Assembly: GCA_021791815.1 (NCBI GenBank)
Contig: JAJYVV010000001.1
Coordinates: forward strand, 1-56,384
Length of the DNA stretch: 56,384 nt
Direction of reading: 5' to 3'
DNA from: Bacillota bacterium
GTDB lineage: Bacteria > Bacillota > Sulfobacillia > RBS10-35 > JAJYVN01
Within the stretch, counting starts at the first letter, position 1; each line of letters starts with the position of its first letter. The notes under the pieces were generated by a model, which was not told where the DNA came from, did not search any database, and saw only the letters and a list, made by a program, of their open reading frames with translations. Positions 9,417-56,384 of the stretch are shown here, in pieces. Made by a program: the position numbers and the translations under genes.

Positions 9417-10667
9417 TCAGCGACCGCCTGCGGAAAGACAACAGTGCTTATACTTGCGGCCACTGCCGCAGGGGCAGGGATCGTTGCGCCCGACGCGCCA
9501 GCGCGCGGCGTCGGCGCGCTCCATTTCGGCCATGATTTCCGCAGGGGCGCTGCCCCGCCGCCAGAGTATCGCCAGACGGCGCAGGTGCGGCGCGGCGTGG
9601 TGGAAGAAGTCCCTGAAGCCCGCGCAAAGGTAGTTGAGGCCAGGCTCGCCGTCGGCGCTCAGGATGAAACGATCCTTCGGGCAGCCGCCGTTGCAGATGA
9701 AGCGCACGTCGCATTGCCGGCAGACCTGCGGTAGGCCATCCTGCTTGGCCTGGCCAAACGCACGCTGCTCCGGGGACTCGACCATGTCCTCCAGGCTCCG
9801 GTCGGCCAGATTGCCCAGCCGATGTTCCGGGAGCACGAAGTGGTCGCACGCGTAGACATCGCCGTTGTGCTCGATGACCAGCGCCCGTCCGCACGTCTCC
9901 CGCAGCACGCACAGGCGCGCCGGCATCCCGGCCCAGACAGTGGCGCTTTCCTCGAAGAGTTGGATGAACATCCGGCCCACGTCGTGGCGGATCCATTCGT
10001 CAAAGATCGCGCTCAGGAAGGTGCCGAAGTCCTCGGGCAGGACGGATCGGTCGGACACACCCCCACCCGGGAGCCGCTCCACGATCGGGATGAACTGCAG
10101 CCAGGTGACACCCACGTCGCGCAGGAACCGGTACACGGCCAGCGGCTGATCGGCATTGGCCCGGTGAACCGCGCACAGGACGTTGTACTCGACGCCATGG
10201 CGCTGCAGGACGTCAAGGCCGCGCATCACGCCGGCATGGCTGGGCCTGCCGCGCCTGTCCACACGGTAGCGATCGTGCAGTTCGGGCGGACCGTCGATGC
10301 TGATGCCCACGAGAAATCCATGGCGCTGCAGGAAGTCGCCCCACTCGTCGTCCAGCAGCGTGCCGTTGGTCTGCAGGGCGTTGGTGCAGGTCCAGCCCGC
10401 GGGCAGGTGCTCCCGCTGCAGGGCCGCCACCCGCCGGAAAAAGTCCAGACCCTGCAGGGTGGGTTCGCCGCCCTGCCAGGCGAAGTCCACGCGCGGCCCG
10501 GGCTGGGCCGCGATGTAGTCGTGGATGTACCGTGCGAGCAGGTCGGGCGCCATGCGGCGGTCGGCGGCCCTGGCGAAAAGCGCGTCCTTGCGCAGATAGT
10601 AGCAGTACGCACACTCCAGGTTGCAGACCGGTCCCACGGGCTTGGCCATGACGTGAAAGGGAAGCAT
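9417..10667 (-). CDS. radical SAM/SPASM anaerobic sulfatase-maturating-enzyme-like protein with C-terminal SEC-C motif
   Basis: Start at ATG 10667 (MLPFHVMAKPVGPVCNLECAYCYY = CxxxCxxC). The SPASM Cys cluster is present (CRQCDVRFICNGGCPKDR). The C-terminal tail NDPCPCGSGRKYKHCC is a SecA-type SEC-C metal-binding motif. Confidence 0.85.
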   Translation of the reverse strand: MLPFHVMAKPVGPVCNLECAYCYYLRKDALFARAADRRMAPDLLARYIHDYIAAQPGPRVDFAWQGGEPTLQGLDFFRRVAALQREHLPAGWTCTNALQTNGTLLDDEWGDFLQRHGFLVGISIDGPPELHDRYRVDRRGRPSHAGVMRGLDVLQRHGVEYNVLCAVHRANADQPLAVYRFLRDVGVTWLQFIPIVERLPGGGVSDRSVLPEDFGTFLSAIFDEWIRHDVGRMFIQLFEESATVWAGMPARLCVLRETCGRALVIEHNGDVYACDHFVLPEHRLGNLADRSLEDMVESPEQRAFGQAKQDGLPQVCRQCDVRFICNGGCPKDRFILSADGEPGLNYLCAGFRDFFHHAAPHLRRLAILWRRGSAPAEIMAEMERADAARWRVGRNDPCPCGSGRKYKHCCLSAGGR

Positions 10668-10867
10668 CCGCGCCCCTCCCCTGCGTGCGGGCATTGCACG
10701 CCGGATGAGGGGATCCCCGTCAGGGCGCCGGGTCCGAACGGACCGAACACAGGGGCCTGTGGCCCGGCTGTTCCCCGCACGTGGCGGCCCCTGAACGACC
10801 GTGGACCGCCTCGCTCGGGCGGGGATTTGGTGGCGGTGGGTGGAGGCCAAGGGCGGGGTTGCCGTCG

Positions 10868-40909: not shown

Positions 40910-41359
40910 TCACATGGGCGGTACCAGTACGACGTGGGACTCACCGAGCACGGACGCGGCCACCCGGCCTTGCCGCTGGTCGGCCGTGCAAAAACGCACT
41001 ACATTCCCGCGGCGGCGCTGCTGCCGCGCGACAACCAAGGCCGTTGCCACATGGATGGCGTCCAGGGTTCGTAGCGGGAAGCGGTCGGTGAGTTGCACCG
41101 CGTCGGAGACCACGGCCTCGTTGAGGTAGATCTGCGTCGTGGATGCGAGCAGGTGGCTCGCGGTGGCACCGAGTTCCTCCTTCTGCGTCGCGCTGATCTG
41201 TCCACGGTGGAAGCGCGCCGAGATGGCCGCCGGAATCTCCACCGTTGCCACCGTGGACACCACGGGCGTGGCCCGCATCGCCTCGGCGACATCGTCAAGG
41301 TCTCCTTCACCAAAGCAGAGCCGCAGAACCGCGCTGGAATCGATCACGGTAACGATCAC
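40910..41359 (-). CDS. vapC: PIN-domain toxin (VapC-like)
   Basis: MIVTVIDSSAV.. (Asp7), ..VEIPAAI.., ..RTLDAIHVATAL.., ..CTADQRQ.. give the acidic quartet of PIN domains. The start overlaps the antitoxin stop (ATGA). Confidence 0.85.
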   Translation of the reverse strand: MIVTVIDSSAVLRLCFGEGDLDDVAEAMRATPVVSTVATVEIPAAISARFHRGQISATQKEELGATASHLLASTTQIYLNEAVVSDAVQLTDRFPLRTLDAIHVATALVVARQQRRRGNVVRFCTADQRQGRVAASVLGESHVVLVPPM

Positions 41360-41967: not shown

Positions 41968-42437
41968 GTGCTCGCCCGTGCCCCTTGTGCGCCGTTGACG
42001 AGGACGGCCACCGATGGGTTTTCTGGCGAAGTCCCTTTACTACAAAGCTCTTCGCCAGAGGACGTTCCCGTCGGCGGCCGACTCCTTGAGCGTCGCAGTG
42101 CTGGAGCTTCTGCGCAAGGCGGATCCGGTCGGGCGTCTCGACTTCGTCCACACAACTGAGGGCGCGTAGCGCAAGAGATCATCGGGCCACGCTGGATGCC
42201 GACGTCTCGGCCTTCCGCGCCCGTCCGTTGACCGAGCCCTTCCCGTACCTCTGGCTGGATGCGACCTTCCCCCACGTCCGCGAGGACGGGCGCGTCGCGC
42301 CCCAGGCGCTCATGATCGCCATCGGGGTGGACGCTCACGGCCGGTGTCGCATCCTGGGCCTCGACATCGGCTGCTCGGAGAACGGGGCCCACTGGACCGC
42401 GTTTCTCAGGTCTCTGGTCGACCGCGGCCTCCACGGC
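41968..42437 (+). pseudogene. IS256-family (Mutator-type) transposase remnant
   Basis: Strong core match at 42170..42437: ..LDADVSAFRARPLTEPFPYLWLDATFPHVREDGRVAPQALMIAIGVDAHGRCRILGLDIGCSENGAHWTAFLRSLVDRGLHG. Upstream similarity is weaker and spread over other frames (..FTTKLFARGRSRRR.. / ..SLSVAVLELLRK..), separated by stops. Both the N- and C-terminal thirds are missing. Confidence 0.6.
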
Positions 42438-42469
42438 GCTGCGCTGCCACCGCGGAGCGCTGTCACGGC

Positions 42470-42792
42470 GGAAGCGGCAGAAAAGTGTGGTGGGGAGATG
42501 ACGCCCAGCCGGTGGAGAGTCCCGCAGCGCCGCGGATGAACTAGCGCCGCAAGCCAGGATTTCGCCCACAAAGGAACTTCCCCCTCCGCCGCCACGCCCA
42601 CCACGGTGCCCGTGGTCGCGTCGATGCGCATCGTCGCCCAGCGCCGTGCCTTCTCTGCATACGACAGCGATGCAAGGTGCGCGGCGGGGACGATTCCGGG
42701 GTACGTGGTGCGCCAGGCGTCGACGTGCACCTTCGCGATGCCGGGGCATCCTCGCGGGACGCGTCCCGCACGACGACGTCGCCGGTCGTCAC
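42470..42792 (-). pseudogene. GNAT N-acetyltransferase, frameshifted and 3'-truncated
   Basis: GTG 42792 with GGGGAGGG 6 nt upstream: VTTGDVVVRDASREDAP. It continues after a frame change at the CCCCGG run (42741..42746) as GIAKVHVDAWRTTYPGIVPAAHLASLSYAEKARRW..VVGVAAEGEV. A second frame change occurs near 42566..42580 (..FVGEILACGA..). Similarity is lost next to the IS256 remnant. Confidence 0.6.
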
Positions 42793-53013: not shown

Positions 53014-54411
53014 TCACCCCCGCCTGGGCGGGTCCGCGACGAGTTCCCGCGCCTCGCCGGCGATGCGCGTGCGGAGGCGGCAGCGGTGCCGCCAGATGCG
53101 GGCGACGTGCTCCAGCGCCTTCTGCGCGTCCGCCAACTCCAGGTCGCGCCCGTCATGGCTGTGTTCGAGCAGGAGTTCGCGGGCGCCCCCGTGGTCGAAA
53201 TCGACCGCGGCGACGACCGGGCGGCCGCACGCCTCGCGGCTGCGCACCAGGGCGTCGCGCACGGCCTCAAAGTCGGTGGCGGTCACCTTCCAGAGCGCCT
53301 GGCCGCCCTCGTCGCGCCTGCTGTACACGAACATGTCGAGGCGTTCGGCGACCTCCCGGGTGAAGTGGTTGCGCACAAACGCGACGTCGTCCTCGACCTC
53401 GCGGATGAGAAAGCATTCCCGCAGCCCGTCGCGCTCTCCCAGACGCTCGACGATGTCCTCGTAGATCGCGACCCCCAGGAGATATGGGTTGATCGCACCC
53501 GGGTGCGCGGCCCGCACACCGGCGTTGAGGCGGGCGAAATCGAGGTACTCGCCGTCGGAGAGCGGCAGGTCGCGCAGCAGGCGCGTGTGCCAGAGCGTCG
53601 CCCACCCTTCGTTCATGACCTTGGTGCGCAGCTGGGGGCGGAAGTAGAGCGCCTCGTCGCGCACCATGTCGATGGCATCGCGCTGCCAGTCCTCCAGATC
53701 CGGGGCGTGGCGGGCCAGAAACAGCAGCAGGTCGGCGCCCTCCGGGCCGCGCCGCCCGGCCGACGCCCCGGCGCCCTCCCGTCGGGGAAACAGCGTGGCC
53801 GCCCGCGCCTCGACGGCCTCCGCGTCCGCCGCGACCCTGCCCGGAACCGGGCCTGCGCCGGCGCGGCCCGGCGGCAGGCCGCGGAGCGGCATCGGCGGGG
53901 GCCCGGCCGCGCCCGGGTCGACATGGTCCTCGATGGCGAGGAGGGCGTCGAGCAGCGCCTCCACCTCCGCCCGTCCGTGGGCGAATTCGTAGCCGCGCAG
54001 GCGGTCCGCGTGCAGCGGCGCGCGGTCGGCCATGTCGCGCGGCGCGGCCCTGAAATGCGCGTTGCGGGCAAAGAAGTCGGCGTGCCCGAGCACGTGCCCG
54101 GCGACCAGCTTGTTGGTCAGCAGGTCGTTGCTCTCGAGCAGGAAGGCCTCGGCGGGGTCGCTGTGCACGACGAGCTCGAAGTACTTGACGAGCCCGAGGT
54201 CATACTGCGCCTTCAGGCTCTGGTACGCCTTGCCGTGGGACCAATGGGAGAAGCGCCCGGGCAGCCCGTAGGCGGCCACCTCGTACAGGATGGTCGAGGG
54301 CACGACCTCGAAGTGCACGGGCAGTGGAGCGAGGCCCGCGGCGGCGGCGAGGTCGCCGAGCCGGGAGAGCGCCTCCTGCAGGGCCGCCGCGTCGCTGTCG
54401 CGCATCCCCAT
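53014..54411 (-). CDS. spoVR: SpoVR family protein
   Basis: From ATG 54411: ..PVHFEVVPSTILYEVAAYGLPGRFSHWSHGKAYQSLKAQYDLGLVKYFELVVHSDPAEAFLLESNDLLTNKLVAGHVLGHADFF.. and ..VMNEGWATLWH.. are collinear with SpoVR/YcgB. Protein of 465 aa. Confidence 0.9.
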   Translation of the reverse strand: MGMRDSDAAALQEALSRLGDLAAAAGLAPLPVHFEVVPSTILYEVAAYGLPGRFSHWSHGKAYQSLKAQYDLGLVKYFELVVHSDPAEAFLLESNDLLTNKLVAGHVLGHADFFARNAHFRAAPRDMADRAPLHADRLRGYEFAHGRAEVEALLDALLAIEDHVDPGAAGPPPMPLRGLPPGRAGAGPVPGRVAADAEAVEARAATLFPRREGAGASAGRRGPEGADLLLFLARHAPDLEDWQRDAIDMVRDEALYFRPQLRTKVMNEGWATLWHTRLLRDLPLSDGEYLDFARLNAGVRAAHPGAINPYLLGVAIYEDIVERLGERDGLRECFLIREVEDDVAFVRNHFTREVAERLDMFVYSRRDEGGQALWKVTATDFEAVRDALVRSREACGRPVVAAVDFDHGGARELLLEHSHDGRDLELADAQKALEHVARIWRHRCRLRTRIAGEARELVADPPRRG

Positions 54412-54714
54412 CTCCGCCCCTTCGCGGCCGCCGCGCGGCCGCGGGGATCCATATGCCGGCGCGCGGCCCGCCGGGCTGCGCACGAGACCGCCGTGGCGGG
54501 CACCGGCAACCATCCAGCCGGGCGGGCCAAGACCGCATGCGGACTCTGCGGCAATGACCGCCATCCGGCGGCAGGGAACGGGACCTCGTGCGGCCAATAG
54601 CCGTGCCGGGCGGATGCTGGTGGCCCGCTCGGCGGCCGACTCCCGGCTGGGCGGCGGCATGCCGTTCCGGATGCGCGTCCGAGTCGGCCGGGTTCGTTGC
54701 GGGGGGACACGGGG

Positions 54715-55818
54715 ATGCATCGTGGGCTGTGGAGGCGCGCCCGCTTGCTCGCGCCGCTGCTGGCGGCATCCGTCGCCGCGGCCGGTTGCAGCTTCCGGCT
54801 GCTGCCGGCCCAGGGCGTGGTCGCCAACCCGGCGACCCGGTTGGTGTTGCCGGCCCAGCAGCAGGTGACCACGGTCACCGTGCAGCAGGGGAACGTCACC
54901 GCCACGCAGCAGATCGCCGGCACGATCGAGCCTGTGCGCACGGCCCTCCTGTATTTCTTGACCAACGGCAAGGTCGAGACGCTCAACATGGTCAACGGCC
55001 AGGCCGTACATGCCGGCGAGGTGCTGGCCACCCTCAACGTGGGCAACCTGCCGTTCCAGATCAGCCAGATGAACCTCACGCTGCAGCGCGACCAATTGCA
55101 GATCACGGATCTCGAGAACAGCCTCCAAACCAATCCGCCCACGTCCCCGCTGCAGGCCGATCAGCGGATGAACCAGGTCCAGGAGGCCCAGATGCAGCTC
55201 CAGGCCGATCAGTTGAGCCAGCAGAGTCTGCAGTTGCAGCTGTCCCAGCAGGAGATCATCGCGCCGTTCGCCGGCGTGCTGCAGGACGTCAACGTGCAAA
55301 CGGGCAACGACGTCGGCCAGTATCAGGTGCTCGCCCAATTGCAGGACACGTCAGGGGGCATCTGGGTCGCCAAACTCACGGCGGCCCAGGCCAATATCAT
55401 CGCCCCGGGCCAGCCGGTGAAGCTCAGCCTCTCGACGGACCCGCAGGCGGCCCTGACCACCACCATCGGCTCCGTGCAGATCCCCACTTCGGACGCGACC
55501 GCGATCGCGCAGGCGAACTCGGGCCTGGGCGGCCTCACGCAGCCCCAGGCGACCCTCGCGACCCCGTCCGGCTACACGTTCAAGGCGAGCGACGTCGGTG
55601 CGGCGTTCACGGGCGTGGTCACCGTCGCCGAACAGGACAACGTGCTGTTCCTGCCCAACAGCAACACCGTCTTTTCCTTCAACGGCCTGAACTACGTGTT
55701 TCTCTACAAGGACGGGCGGACCATCGAGCGGCCGGTGTCGCTCGGCCTGCAGGGCACCCAGGACGTGGTCATCACCGGCGGACTCAAGGCCGGGGACGCC
55801 GTCGTGGAACAGGGGTAG
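54715..55818 (+). CDS. HlyD/membrane-fusion-protein family periplasmic adaptor lipoprotein
   Basis: ATG 54715. Lipobox AAAGC. The architecture is barrel-sandwich, then Gln-rich coiled-coil hairpin (..QMQLQADQLSQQSLQLQLSQQEIIAPFAGVL..), then a beta-barrel. It is noticeably less GC-rich than its neighbours. Confidence 0.8.
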   Translation: MHRGLWRRARLLAPLLAASVAAAGCSFRLLPAQGVVANPATRLVLPAQQQVTTVTVQQGNVTATQQIAGTIEPVRTALLYFLTNGKVETLNMVNGQAVHAGEVLATLNVGNLPFQISQMNLTLQRDQLQITDLENSLQTNPPTSPLQADQRMNQVQEAQMQLQADQLSQQSLQLQLSQQEIIAPFAGVLQDVNVQTGNDVGQYQVLAQLQDTSGGIWVAKLTAAQANIIAPGQPVKLSLSTDPQAALTTTIGSVQIPTSDATAIAQANSGLGGLTQPQATLATPSGYTFKASDVGAAFTGVVTVAEQDNVLFLPNSNTVFSFNGLNYVFLYKDGRTIERPVSLGLQGTQDVVITGGLKAGDAVVEQG

Positions 55819-55837
55819 GGCCCGCCGCGCCGGCCGG

Positions 55838-56101
55838 TCACGACTCGCCCGGGGTCCGGACCGCCTCCGGCGGATGGAAGAACCGGCGCAGGGCCCGATA
55901 CACGTCGCGCCGCTCGTGGAGCGACATGGTCACGAAGCGCGCATCCCCGATCTCGGCCAGGGCGCCGAGGAGCGGGGAGCGGTATCCTCCCTCGGCGATC
56001 TCCGCGTAGCCGACGGCCGCCGCGCCCGCCACCATCTGCCGGGTCAGCTCCACGCACCGGCGGTTGTCGGCGTCGCCCCAGTTGTCGCCGTCGGGAAACT
56101 G
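55838..56101 (-). pseudogene. yhbH: 3' fragment (about 87 codons) of yhbH/yeaH (DUF444) gene
   Basis: QFPDGDNWGDADNRRCVELTRQMV..VGYAEIAEGG..LLGALAEIGDARFVTMSLHERRDVYRALRRFF matches the C-terminal end of YhbH/YeaH (..SDGDNW..D...C...L...l....Y.Ei........L.......F.......DiY...r.lF). The roughly 300 N-terminal residues are absent from this position. Confidence 0.7.
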
Positions 56102-56129
56102 CGGCCCAGGGAGACGGCGTGCCGCCACG

Positions 56130-56384
56130 CTACTCGATCTCGACCCTCGCGTCCCGCCAGACCTGGATGCGCCGTGCAACGCCGCGGAGCAGCGCTCGCC
56201 GCTGCGCCCCGTCGGCCAGGTCCCAGAGCTGTGGCAAGTCGACCAGCAGCCGCTTGACGTTTTCCGGATCGGGGCGGTGATCGCGGGCGAGGTCCAGTTC
56301 CAAGGCCGCTGCGCGCGTCTGGAGTTCGGCGCGTTCCGTCCGCAGGGCGCCCATCCTCTCCCCCACGTCGGAACCCGACAGCCA
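56130..56384 (-). CDS. large serine recombinase, C-terminal end (5' part lies beyond the window)
   Basis: The frame is open to the window edge. ..ERMGALRTERAELQTRAAALELDL..ENVKRLLVDLPQLWDLADGAQRRALLRGVARRIQVWRDARVEIE* shows the coiled-coil plus the ..R..LL+.++.RI.V..D..vEI tail typical of large serine recombinases. Confidence 0.7.
   Translation of the reverse strand, partial: WLSGSDVGERMGALRTERAELQTRAAALELDLARDHRPDPENVKRLLVDLPQLWDLADGAQRRALLRGVARRIQVWRDARVEIE

Follow-up and report, generated by a model that had tools for sequence, protein, structure and literature searches.

A probable attachment junction of a large serine integrase element within yhbH of an uncultured high-GC Bacillota bacterium

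In the SPbeta prophage of Bacillus subtilis, the integrase gene sprA is located at the end of the element, beside the 3' fragment ypqP. SPbeta (integrase SprA, directionality factor SprB) resides in spsM, which it splits into 5' and 3' open reading frames (ORFs), and its precise excision rebuilds the gene (PMC4191935; PMC5499854). Further serine recombinase elements are found in sporulation genes, namely skin in sigK, vfbin in spoVFB, vrin in spoVR, gin in gerE, and yin in yabG. Their attachment (att) sites are ~50 bp long and consist of inverted repeats around a short core (PMC5595907). yhbH was also named as an insertion target by Abe et al. (Mol Microbiol, 2013), as cited in Kohm et al. (bioRxiv 10.1101/2021.11.22.469490); among the searchable papers, none was found which pairs the term "intervening element" with yhbH. 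Here we describe a yhbH locus at the end of a 56,384-nucleotide stretch, referred to as the window (assembly GCA_021791815.1, contig JAJYVV010000001.1, positions 1 to 56,384), from an uncultured Bacillota bacterium with a GC (guanine plus cytosine) content near 75%. The end of the window is very probably the attR site of a large serine integrase element inserted in yhbH. Contigs and loci used for comparison are given as L numbers and proteins as P numbers.

The junction and its attachment sites

In the window, yhbH is present as a 3' fragment on the minus strand (55838-56092), which runs for 84 codons from DGDNW to the stop codon. When positions 55838-56128 of this strand were compared with the Pfam DUF444 profile (PF04285), a score of 33.4 bits was obtained (E 3.4e-8, curated cut-off 27), and the match spans only profile positions 339-416 of 418, as in a C-terminal fragment. 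The original prediction, that only the 3' part of the gene is present, was therefore borne out, with an intact length of 84 codons. The frame is open throughout, the conserved GYxEI, YxSPL, RF, and VYxALRRFF residues are kept, and the fragment is ~50% identical to the intact protein of L021 over the same stretch. A tblastn search with an intact relative revealed no further yhbH piece in the 56 kb window. The closest named YhbH relatives of the clade belong to Symbiobacterium and Thermaerobacter. The DG of the DGDNW motif lies in a von Willebrand A-like region of yhbH (a weak VWA_CoxE match), and no solved structure was found to match intact YhbH by sequence.

On the same strand, the window ends in the 3' end of a large serine recombinase (LSR) gene (56130-56384, minus strand), of which 84 codons and a TAG stop codon at 56132-56130 are contained and whose body continues past the window end. 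Taken alone, these 84 integrase residues did not match any recombinase Pfam model. A database search with them gave a single match, P0001, which led to contig L001, and L002-L007 were reached through the closest relatives of the yhbH fragment. The window tail is 78-86% identical in amino acids (aa) to the C-terminus of the ORFs in L001-L007, which were called at 392-423 aa and stop 6 bp before a 91-aa DUF444 fragment. In L002-L005, where the whole ORF lies in the contig, Resolvase, Recombinase, and Zn_ribbon_recom domains were found (including PF07508 and PF13408), and the relatives' ORFs match the phrog_95 integrase (E 7e-120). Since the window tail is homologous to LSRs with the full domain set, the earlier assignment of a same-strand LSR with its stop at 56130 appears to stand. 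Moreover, the same succession of LSR stop, short spacer, and yhbH fragment is found in L001-L007, which come from independent ENA, Logan, and NCBI assemblies, and the junction is in register base for base in at least eight contigs from different projects and assemblers. With this recurrence in independent assemblies, an artefact of assembly is ruled out as the source of the junction.

The att sites were reconstructed from attR and attL junctions of different organisms. The attR of the window spans approximately 56118-56065. Read from the sequence on the minus strand, the LSR stop codon is followed by a short element-derived spacer (56119-56129) and by the P half-site, the element arm of attR (GCCGTCTCCCTGGGCCGCAGTTTCCC, 56093-56118), whose reverse complement resembles the P' arms of attL. 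Next comes the putative crossover dinucleotide GA (56091-56092, TC on the plus strand), which is the shared centre of attB, attL, and attR, and then the B' half-site, the host arm of attR (CGGCGACAACTGGGGCGACGCCGACA, 56065-56090, minus strand). The latter encodes (D)GDNWGDAD and is near-invariant in intact and split yhbH. The GA at 56092-56091 forms bases 1-2 of the GAC Asp codon in the conserved DGDNW, and the integrase target is the most conserved stretch of yhbH, found across several lineages. The spacer between the LSR stop and the P half-site differs in length between the window and L001/L002. The original prediction had placed the junction within 56102-56129; the crossover would instead lie at 56091-56092, ~10 bp outside that range. 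The discrepancy can be traced to the P arm of the element, in which TTTCCC resembles the TTCTCC of the host, so that a translated "FP" looks like the host "FS" and an apparent "QFP" homology extends upstream of DGDNW.

To the left of the core, attR junctions contain the P arm CCGTCTCCCC-N15, and to the right of the core attL junctions contain the P' arm N15-GGGGAGACGCG (for example GGGAAACTGCAGGGTGGGGAGACGCG). The element arms are inverted repeats of the form CGTCTCCCC-N15-GA-N15-GGGGAGACG, and when P and P' are joined they produce an attP of ~50 bp which is near-palindromic around the central GA. The window P arm agrees with the reverse complement of P' from L023, L027, L028, and L030 at 18-19 of 26 positions, which was reached by none of 20000 shuffles, and the P arms of L001/L002 agree with it at 19-22 of 26. 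The B and B' arms of the host match each other at just 6-8 of 26 positions. The attB site is CACTTCTCC-GA-CGGCGACAACTGGGGAGACGCC, encoding ...NIYPFHFS-DGDNWGDAD. P matches B at 9 of 26 positions and P' matches B' at 8 of 26, and GA is the sole sequence common to the centres of attB, attL, and attR. The motif CGTCTCC was found at equal spacing from the core in six clade-A attR junctions (window, L001, L002, L010, L015, and L018), and clade-B contigs L009 and L011 have CGTCACC in its place. The outer GGGGAGACG motif stands closer to the core in B' (11 nt) than in P' (15 nt), a difference of 4 bp, and these are the distances at which GGGG(A/C)GACG lies in the two arms. A half-site spacing difference of this kind between attB and attP reportedly emerged from structural work on the LI integrase. 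Judged from sequence, the reconstructed sites have the makeup of LSR att sites, with an inverted-repeat attP of ~50 bp and an attB that appears to share the core only.

At three of the four attL junctions, a palindrome, AAATGGCGT-N4-ACGCCATTT, directly flanks the P' arm on its outer side, and the L023 variant is imperfect (AAATGGTGT...ACGCCACTT). The approximate positions are L023:7225-7260, L027:7975-8005, L028:2695-2730, and L030:2085-2120. The palindrome overlaps or directly follows the stop codon of the truncated 5' yhbH ORF, and may act as an operator, as a terminator, or as a site for an accessory factor.

Split and intact yhbH in related genomes

One genome per species was scanned for DNA encoding DGDNWGDADN. 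Intact yhbH was found in L012, L013, L014, L017, and L019-L022, and truncated yhbH in L009-L011, L015, L016, and L018, all of which are cut 2-4 codons before DGDNW. Everything on the other end of the element comes from relatives. With the N-terminal 302 residues of L021/P0007, the closest intact protein, as the query, a search for the 5' half recovered intact proteins of ~380 aa together with a set of 315-326 aa which ends in ...YPFHFS(D/E)GN plus a conserved foreign tail, (C/R)xxGRRxEMA*. The 5' fragments P0011, P0013, P0015, P0020, P0127, and P0129 end in HFS(D/E)G, most of them followed by the ...GRRxEMA* tail, which derives from the element. On the attL contigs (L023 and L027-L030), host genes (HSP20 and solute-binding proteins) lie upstream of the junction and unrelated DNA of lower GC content lies downstream. 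Each split lineage has an intact nearest relative (P0013/P0015 with P0014, P0011 with P0007-P0009, P0020 with P0016, and P0127 with P0010), which argues for integration, or precise loss, on several occasions. Such repeated gain or loss is what an active site-specific mobile element would look like.

The two halves of the gene could be joined in a sister species. The 90%-identity cluster of the intact protein P0010 (378 aa) contains the intact proteins P0128 and P0131-P0133 as well as the 315-aa 5' fragments P0127 and P0129, which end in HFSEGDR(R/S)PGRRAEMA*. The C-terminus of P0010 is identical to the 3' fragment P0004/P0134, which is adjacent to the integrase in L001-L007. At the nucleotide level, the intact locus L036 and the attR contig L001 are 98.4% identical over 913 bp, and the alignment starts exactly at the GA core (L036 position 1325, L001 position 468). 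The DUF444 profile is covered in a complementary manner, to position 345 by the 5' fragment and from 340 to 416 by the 3' fragment. The in silico joining that had been suggested, with an intact DUF444 ORF and a shared core as the expected outcome, was therefore achieved at the level of a species cluster in a relative, where P0127/P0129 and P0004 together give the intact P0010/P0128. The shared cluster and the exact match from GA onwards indicate that occupied sites coexist with empty or restored ones, and recombination at GA explains both.

The left flank of the window is host chromosome and contains spoVR, a gene for an HlyD-type lipoprotein, GH31 and GH38 glycosidases, asparagine synthase, transporters, and two-component genes. 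As had been predicted, spoVR (53014-54413, minus strand; Pfam SpoVR, E 4.7e-94, and SpoVR_C) is 1.4 kb from the yhbH fragment. The gene between them, for a membrane-fusion lipoprotein of the HlyD type (54697-55818, plus strand; Pfam HlyD_D23/HlyD_3), is convergent with the yhbH fragment. In the intact locus L031/L032 (P0009), yhbH is convergent with an HlyD homologue as it is in the window (63% in tblastx), and the upstream side of L031 (HSP20 and its neighbours) matches the attL loci L028, L023, and L027. L031 is thus the undisrupted version which links both kinds of junction. Element sides have a GC content of 66-69% and host sides 70-74%, with the element ~5 GC points lower; in the window, the integrase part has 71% as against 74.8% overall. 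A replacement 3' end for yhbH carried by the element was also considered and was ruled out by the host composition and synteny of the fragment side.

The att half-sites, the reciprocal 5' fragments, the intact allele of the sister species, and the L031 flank together support the proposal that the window reaches the edge of an LSR-carrying, gene-interrupting element whose attachment junction is bracketed by the LSR stop and the yhbH fragment. The suggested membership in a PrkA-YhbH-SpoVR module was retained with respect to the proximity of spoVR and was lost with respect to prkA, which is not adjacent to yhbH in the loci compared. Therefore the picture of a PrkA-YhbH-SpoVR operon holds just loosely here.

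Several other features of the compared loci were observed. In L009, two tandem 3' fragments of a second DUF444 clade (L009:3798-4064 and L009:5641-5853) are 89% identical in nucleotides and are separated by a methyltransferase gene; both start directly after the att core, and the second, which has GG for GA, is followed by spoVR. Two metagenome-assembled genomes (MAGs), DX1.bin73 (L014 and L009) and HSP1.bin35 (L017 and L016), have an intact clade-B DUF444 gene in addition to a separate 3' fragment, and the L016 fragment is frameshifted and degenerate. Such a combination in one MAG could stem from paralogy, strain mixture, or relics of old junctions. At L021:3095-7388, the closest intact locus, the spoVR-HlyD pair is kept, yhbH has the opposite relative orientation, and an alcohol-dehydrogenase-like gene lies between; L031:5065-7530 has the arrangement of window positions 54697-56092, and the difference in orientation between L021 and L031 or the window suggests that the locus is prone to rearrangement. 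A fragment of an IS256-type (Transposase_mut) gene, covering profile positions 158-228 only, is found at 42228-42539 of the window near a PIN-domain gene (40910-41359), and this pair, ~14 kb away from the junction, points to earlier activity of mobile DNA. Finally, a radical SAM/SPASM protein ending in an SEC-C metal-binding motif, an unusual domain combination, is encoded at 9417-10850.

The integrase, its element and the fate of the insertion

According to the proposed mechanism, the integrase would have recombined the palindromic attP of the element (~50 bp) with attB inside yhbH, with strand exchange at the central GA (window 56091-56092). This would place the first ~300 codons of yhbH outside the window, at the distal end of the element, and leave the last 84 beside the integrase gene. 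Recombination between attL and attR would then remove the element precisely and rebuild an intact yhbH, for which the same integrase and a recombination directionality factor would be required. We infer that a complete integrase and the 5' part of yhbH persist in this genome and that the element is excised.

The integrases of the relatives are ~29-35% identical to phage integrases from Geobacillus, Streptococcus, and Anoxybacillus, and nothing above 37% identity was found in phage and plasmid collections. No integrase relatives were found in IMG/VR, nor in JGI metagenomes by alignment of the C-terminus. In L002:5199-5460, and likewise in L003, L004, and L005, the integrase frame is open for 509 codons, with the catalytic AAIYIRVSTEEQ in frame upstream of the called ORF. 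An N-terminal truncation of these integrases was thereby ruled out, as the catalytic motif is in frame and just a canonical start is absent. These contigs also contain an 86-aa ORF in another frame, whose TGA lies ~10 codons before the catalytic motif. The missing start of L002-L005 could reflect a rare start codon, coupling, or a defect.

The cargo of the related elements is diverse. L027 and L030 encode a replication-initiator-like protein and a helicase beside attL. The products of L023:7508-15037 include an IS256-type transposase, a glycosyltransferase, a LanC-like/kinase protein, a DruA-domain protein, and an ABC exporter. Beside the integrase, L002:2009-3822 encodes an AAA_21/AAA_15 ATPase (best PADLOC matches PDC-M07A, HEC-01A, and AbiLi) followed by a DUF4276 protein (a sub-threshold Pfam match); the two are candidates for a pair that defends against phages. 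No phage structural genes were found in the readable parts (up to 10 kb) of related elements.

A number of observations weigh against the proposed mechanism. The window ends inside the integrase gene, before the catalytic N-terminus, and the element body, the attL, and the 5' yhbH half of this genome were not recovered: no match was given by exact look-ups of the HlyD and SpoVR proteins of the window, by an exact 40-mer from the window end in the scan of one genome per species, or by two metagenome scans for the continuation of the element. No free attP was detected in IMG/VR or JGI contigs. The P' arm pattern had 0 matches in viral and metagenome contigs, the symmetric attP pattern had 0 matches in viral contigs and in the 36 fetched loci, and no P' arm was found inside the window with up to 3 mismatches. 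Moreover, between the upstream stop and AAIYIRVSTEEQ the integrase of L002-L005 lacks any ATG, GTG, or TTG, and some integrase copies may be poorly expressed or dead. Since an intact DUF444 gene and a fragment occur together in two MAGs, this genome too might harbour a second, intact copy.

The fragment itself shows signs of constraint. Between L001 and L002, the 3' fragments have a synonymous divergence (dS) of 0.17 and a nonsynonymous divergence (dN) of 0, and within lineages dN/dS (omega) is 0-0.11. In three MAG species (L010, L015, and L018), the fragment has a dN/dS of 0.05-0.11 at a dS of 0.34-0.48, and the flanks are about equally diverged (spoVR dS 0.44-0.52, gene beyond the junction dS 0.35-0.76). 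This equal divergence argues for inheritance of the split, and the ratio is the signature that would be expected if the fragment were still used. Beyond the P arm, these three loci carry a divergent 924-aa AAA_16/TPR/LuxR regulator in host-like DNA of 75% GC and no integrase. An inherited split is hinted at by its presence in all three species, by selection on the fragment, and by the un-element-like DNA beyond the P arm. In these three loci the switch would then exist in a domesticated or rearranged form, possibly of the inversion type. It is a speculative and rather improbable extension that split yhbH in this uncultured, very high-GC Bacillota clade is vertically inherited, selected, and rebuilt on demand by the serine integrase as a programmed rearrangement. 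In the same loci (L010:1-1560, L015:1579-4674, and L018:4032-7133), the yhbH 3' fragment is directly followed by spoVR and is preceded by a P-arm-like CCGTCTCC, 17 nt, and then GA.

Four other explanations of the junction were weighed. In the first, the element would be developmentally regulated like skin, SPbeta, vrin, or gin, kept in the spore germ line and excised in the mother cell under a sporulation sigma factor, with yhbH rebuilt when needed. This can be entertained tentatively. The integrase gene adjoins the 3' fragment, as sprA adjoins ypqP in SPbeta. The interruption of yhbH was observed here, and its role in this host is taken by analogy from B. subtilis, where the gene is part of the mother-cell (sigmaE/SpoIIID) programme (PMC517825). 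In Geobacillus, spoVR, a gene of the same module, is split by vrin, and yhbH is cited as a frequent integration target of phages or transposons in spore formers (Abe et al., 2013, as cited in bioRxiv 10.1101/2021.11.22.469490). The apparently inherited split in L010, L015, and L018, with the divergence and dN/dS values given above, is likewise consistent with regulation. However, no evidence for spore formation was found in the uncultured 75% GC organism, and neither a directionality factor nor a sporulation promoter was identified, the sigma-70 promoter and terminator scan of 55500-56384 having been empty. Further, cargo differs among the elements, and intact and split alleles occur within one species cluster, which fits an ordinary mobile element at least equally well; purifying selection measured between independently invaded lineages may also predate the insertion.

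In the second, the insertion would be dead or immobilised, with a decayed integrase or attL, and yhbH would be permanently inactive in this genome. This would be in line with the upstream part of the window integrase lying beyond the window, with the absence of a canonical start codon in L002-L005, with the existence of degenerate fragments such as that of L016, and with the P-arm-like sequence of L010, L015, and L018, which has no adjacent integrase and host-like GC beside it. In the window itself, however, the frame of the fragment is intact and keeps the residues conserved in the family, the P arm is well preserved, and comparison with L002 shows purifying selection on the C-terminus of the integrase (dN/dS 0.12 at dS 0.94). 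A dead insertion is judged unlikely.

In the third, the short C-terminal DUF444 ORF would be a free-standing gene, or a fragment captured by the element, rather than half of a split host gene. All five database matches to the fragment are indeed short ORFs (65-117 aa), purifying selection is strong in L010, L015, and L018, and L009 has two tandem copies. Yet the point at which homology to intact genes sets in coincides exactly with the att core, GC content and synteny (HlyD and spoVR) on the fragment side are those of the host, as in the intact L031, matching 5' fragments exist, and a start codon upstream of DGDNW is not conserved among relatives, all of which makes this explanation very improbable. 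The fourth, an assembly chimera at the contig end, could be suspected from the window ending in the integrase gene and from a conspecific JGI contig (L008) which begins inside a 100% identical fragment, but with the same in-register junction in at least eight contigs of different projects and assemblers it can practically be dismissed. The attR of a large serine integrase element in yhbH is thus retained as the preferred interpretation of the window end.

Comparison with known systems

Because skin/SPbeta-type elements are established and yhbH has already been cited as a target, neither the target gene nor the principle is new, and the understanding of how such systems work is unchanged. The novelty lies in the host clade, in the integrase family, and in the att sites resolved here. 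These observations define a previously uncharacterised serine integrase family with inferred attB, attP, attL, and attR sites, and they widen the range of skin/SPbeta-like, gene-splitting elements to include uncultured high-GC Bacillota. They also offer a testable case of a gene from a stress/sporulation module that is possibly switched by DNA excision. The integrase and its att pair, from a high-GC and possibly thermophilic background, could serve genome engineering.

With phiC31, Bxb1, and LI/A118, the integrases described here share the same domain set, a near-palindromic attP around a non-palindromic dinucleotide, and an attB which shares 8-9 of 26 positions per arm with attP. They differ in that identity is at most 37% and in that the att sites were derived from junctions in different organisms. 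Like SPbeta, the element has an LSR gene at its end, beside the 3' part of a coding sequence which it divides into two ORFs. It departs from SPbeta in several respects: the integrases reach only ~30% identity with the phage integrases found, another gene is targeted and the att sequences differ, the host belongs to an uncultured Bacillota lineage of 75% GC, and the readable parts of related elements are free of phage structural genes. For skin, vfbin, vrin, gin, and yin, excision in the mother cell was shown experimentally, whereas the present system is known from its sequence. The target of vrin, spoVR, is located 1.4 kb from the yhbH fragment of the window.

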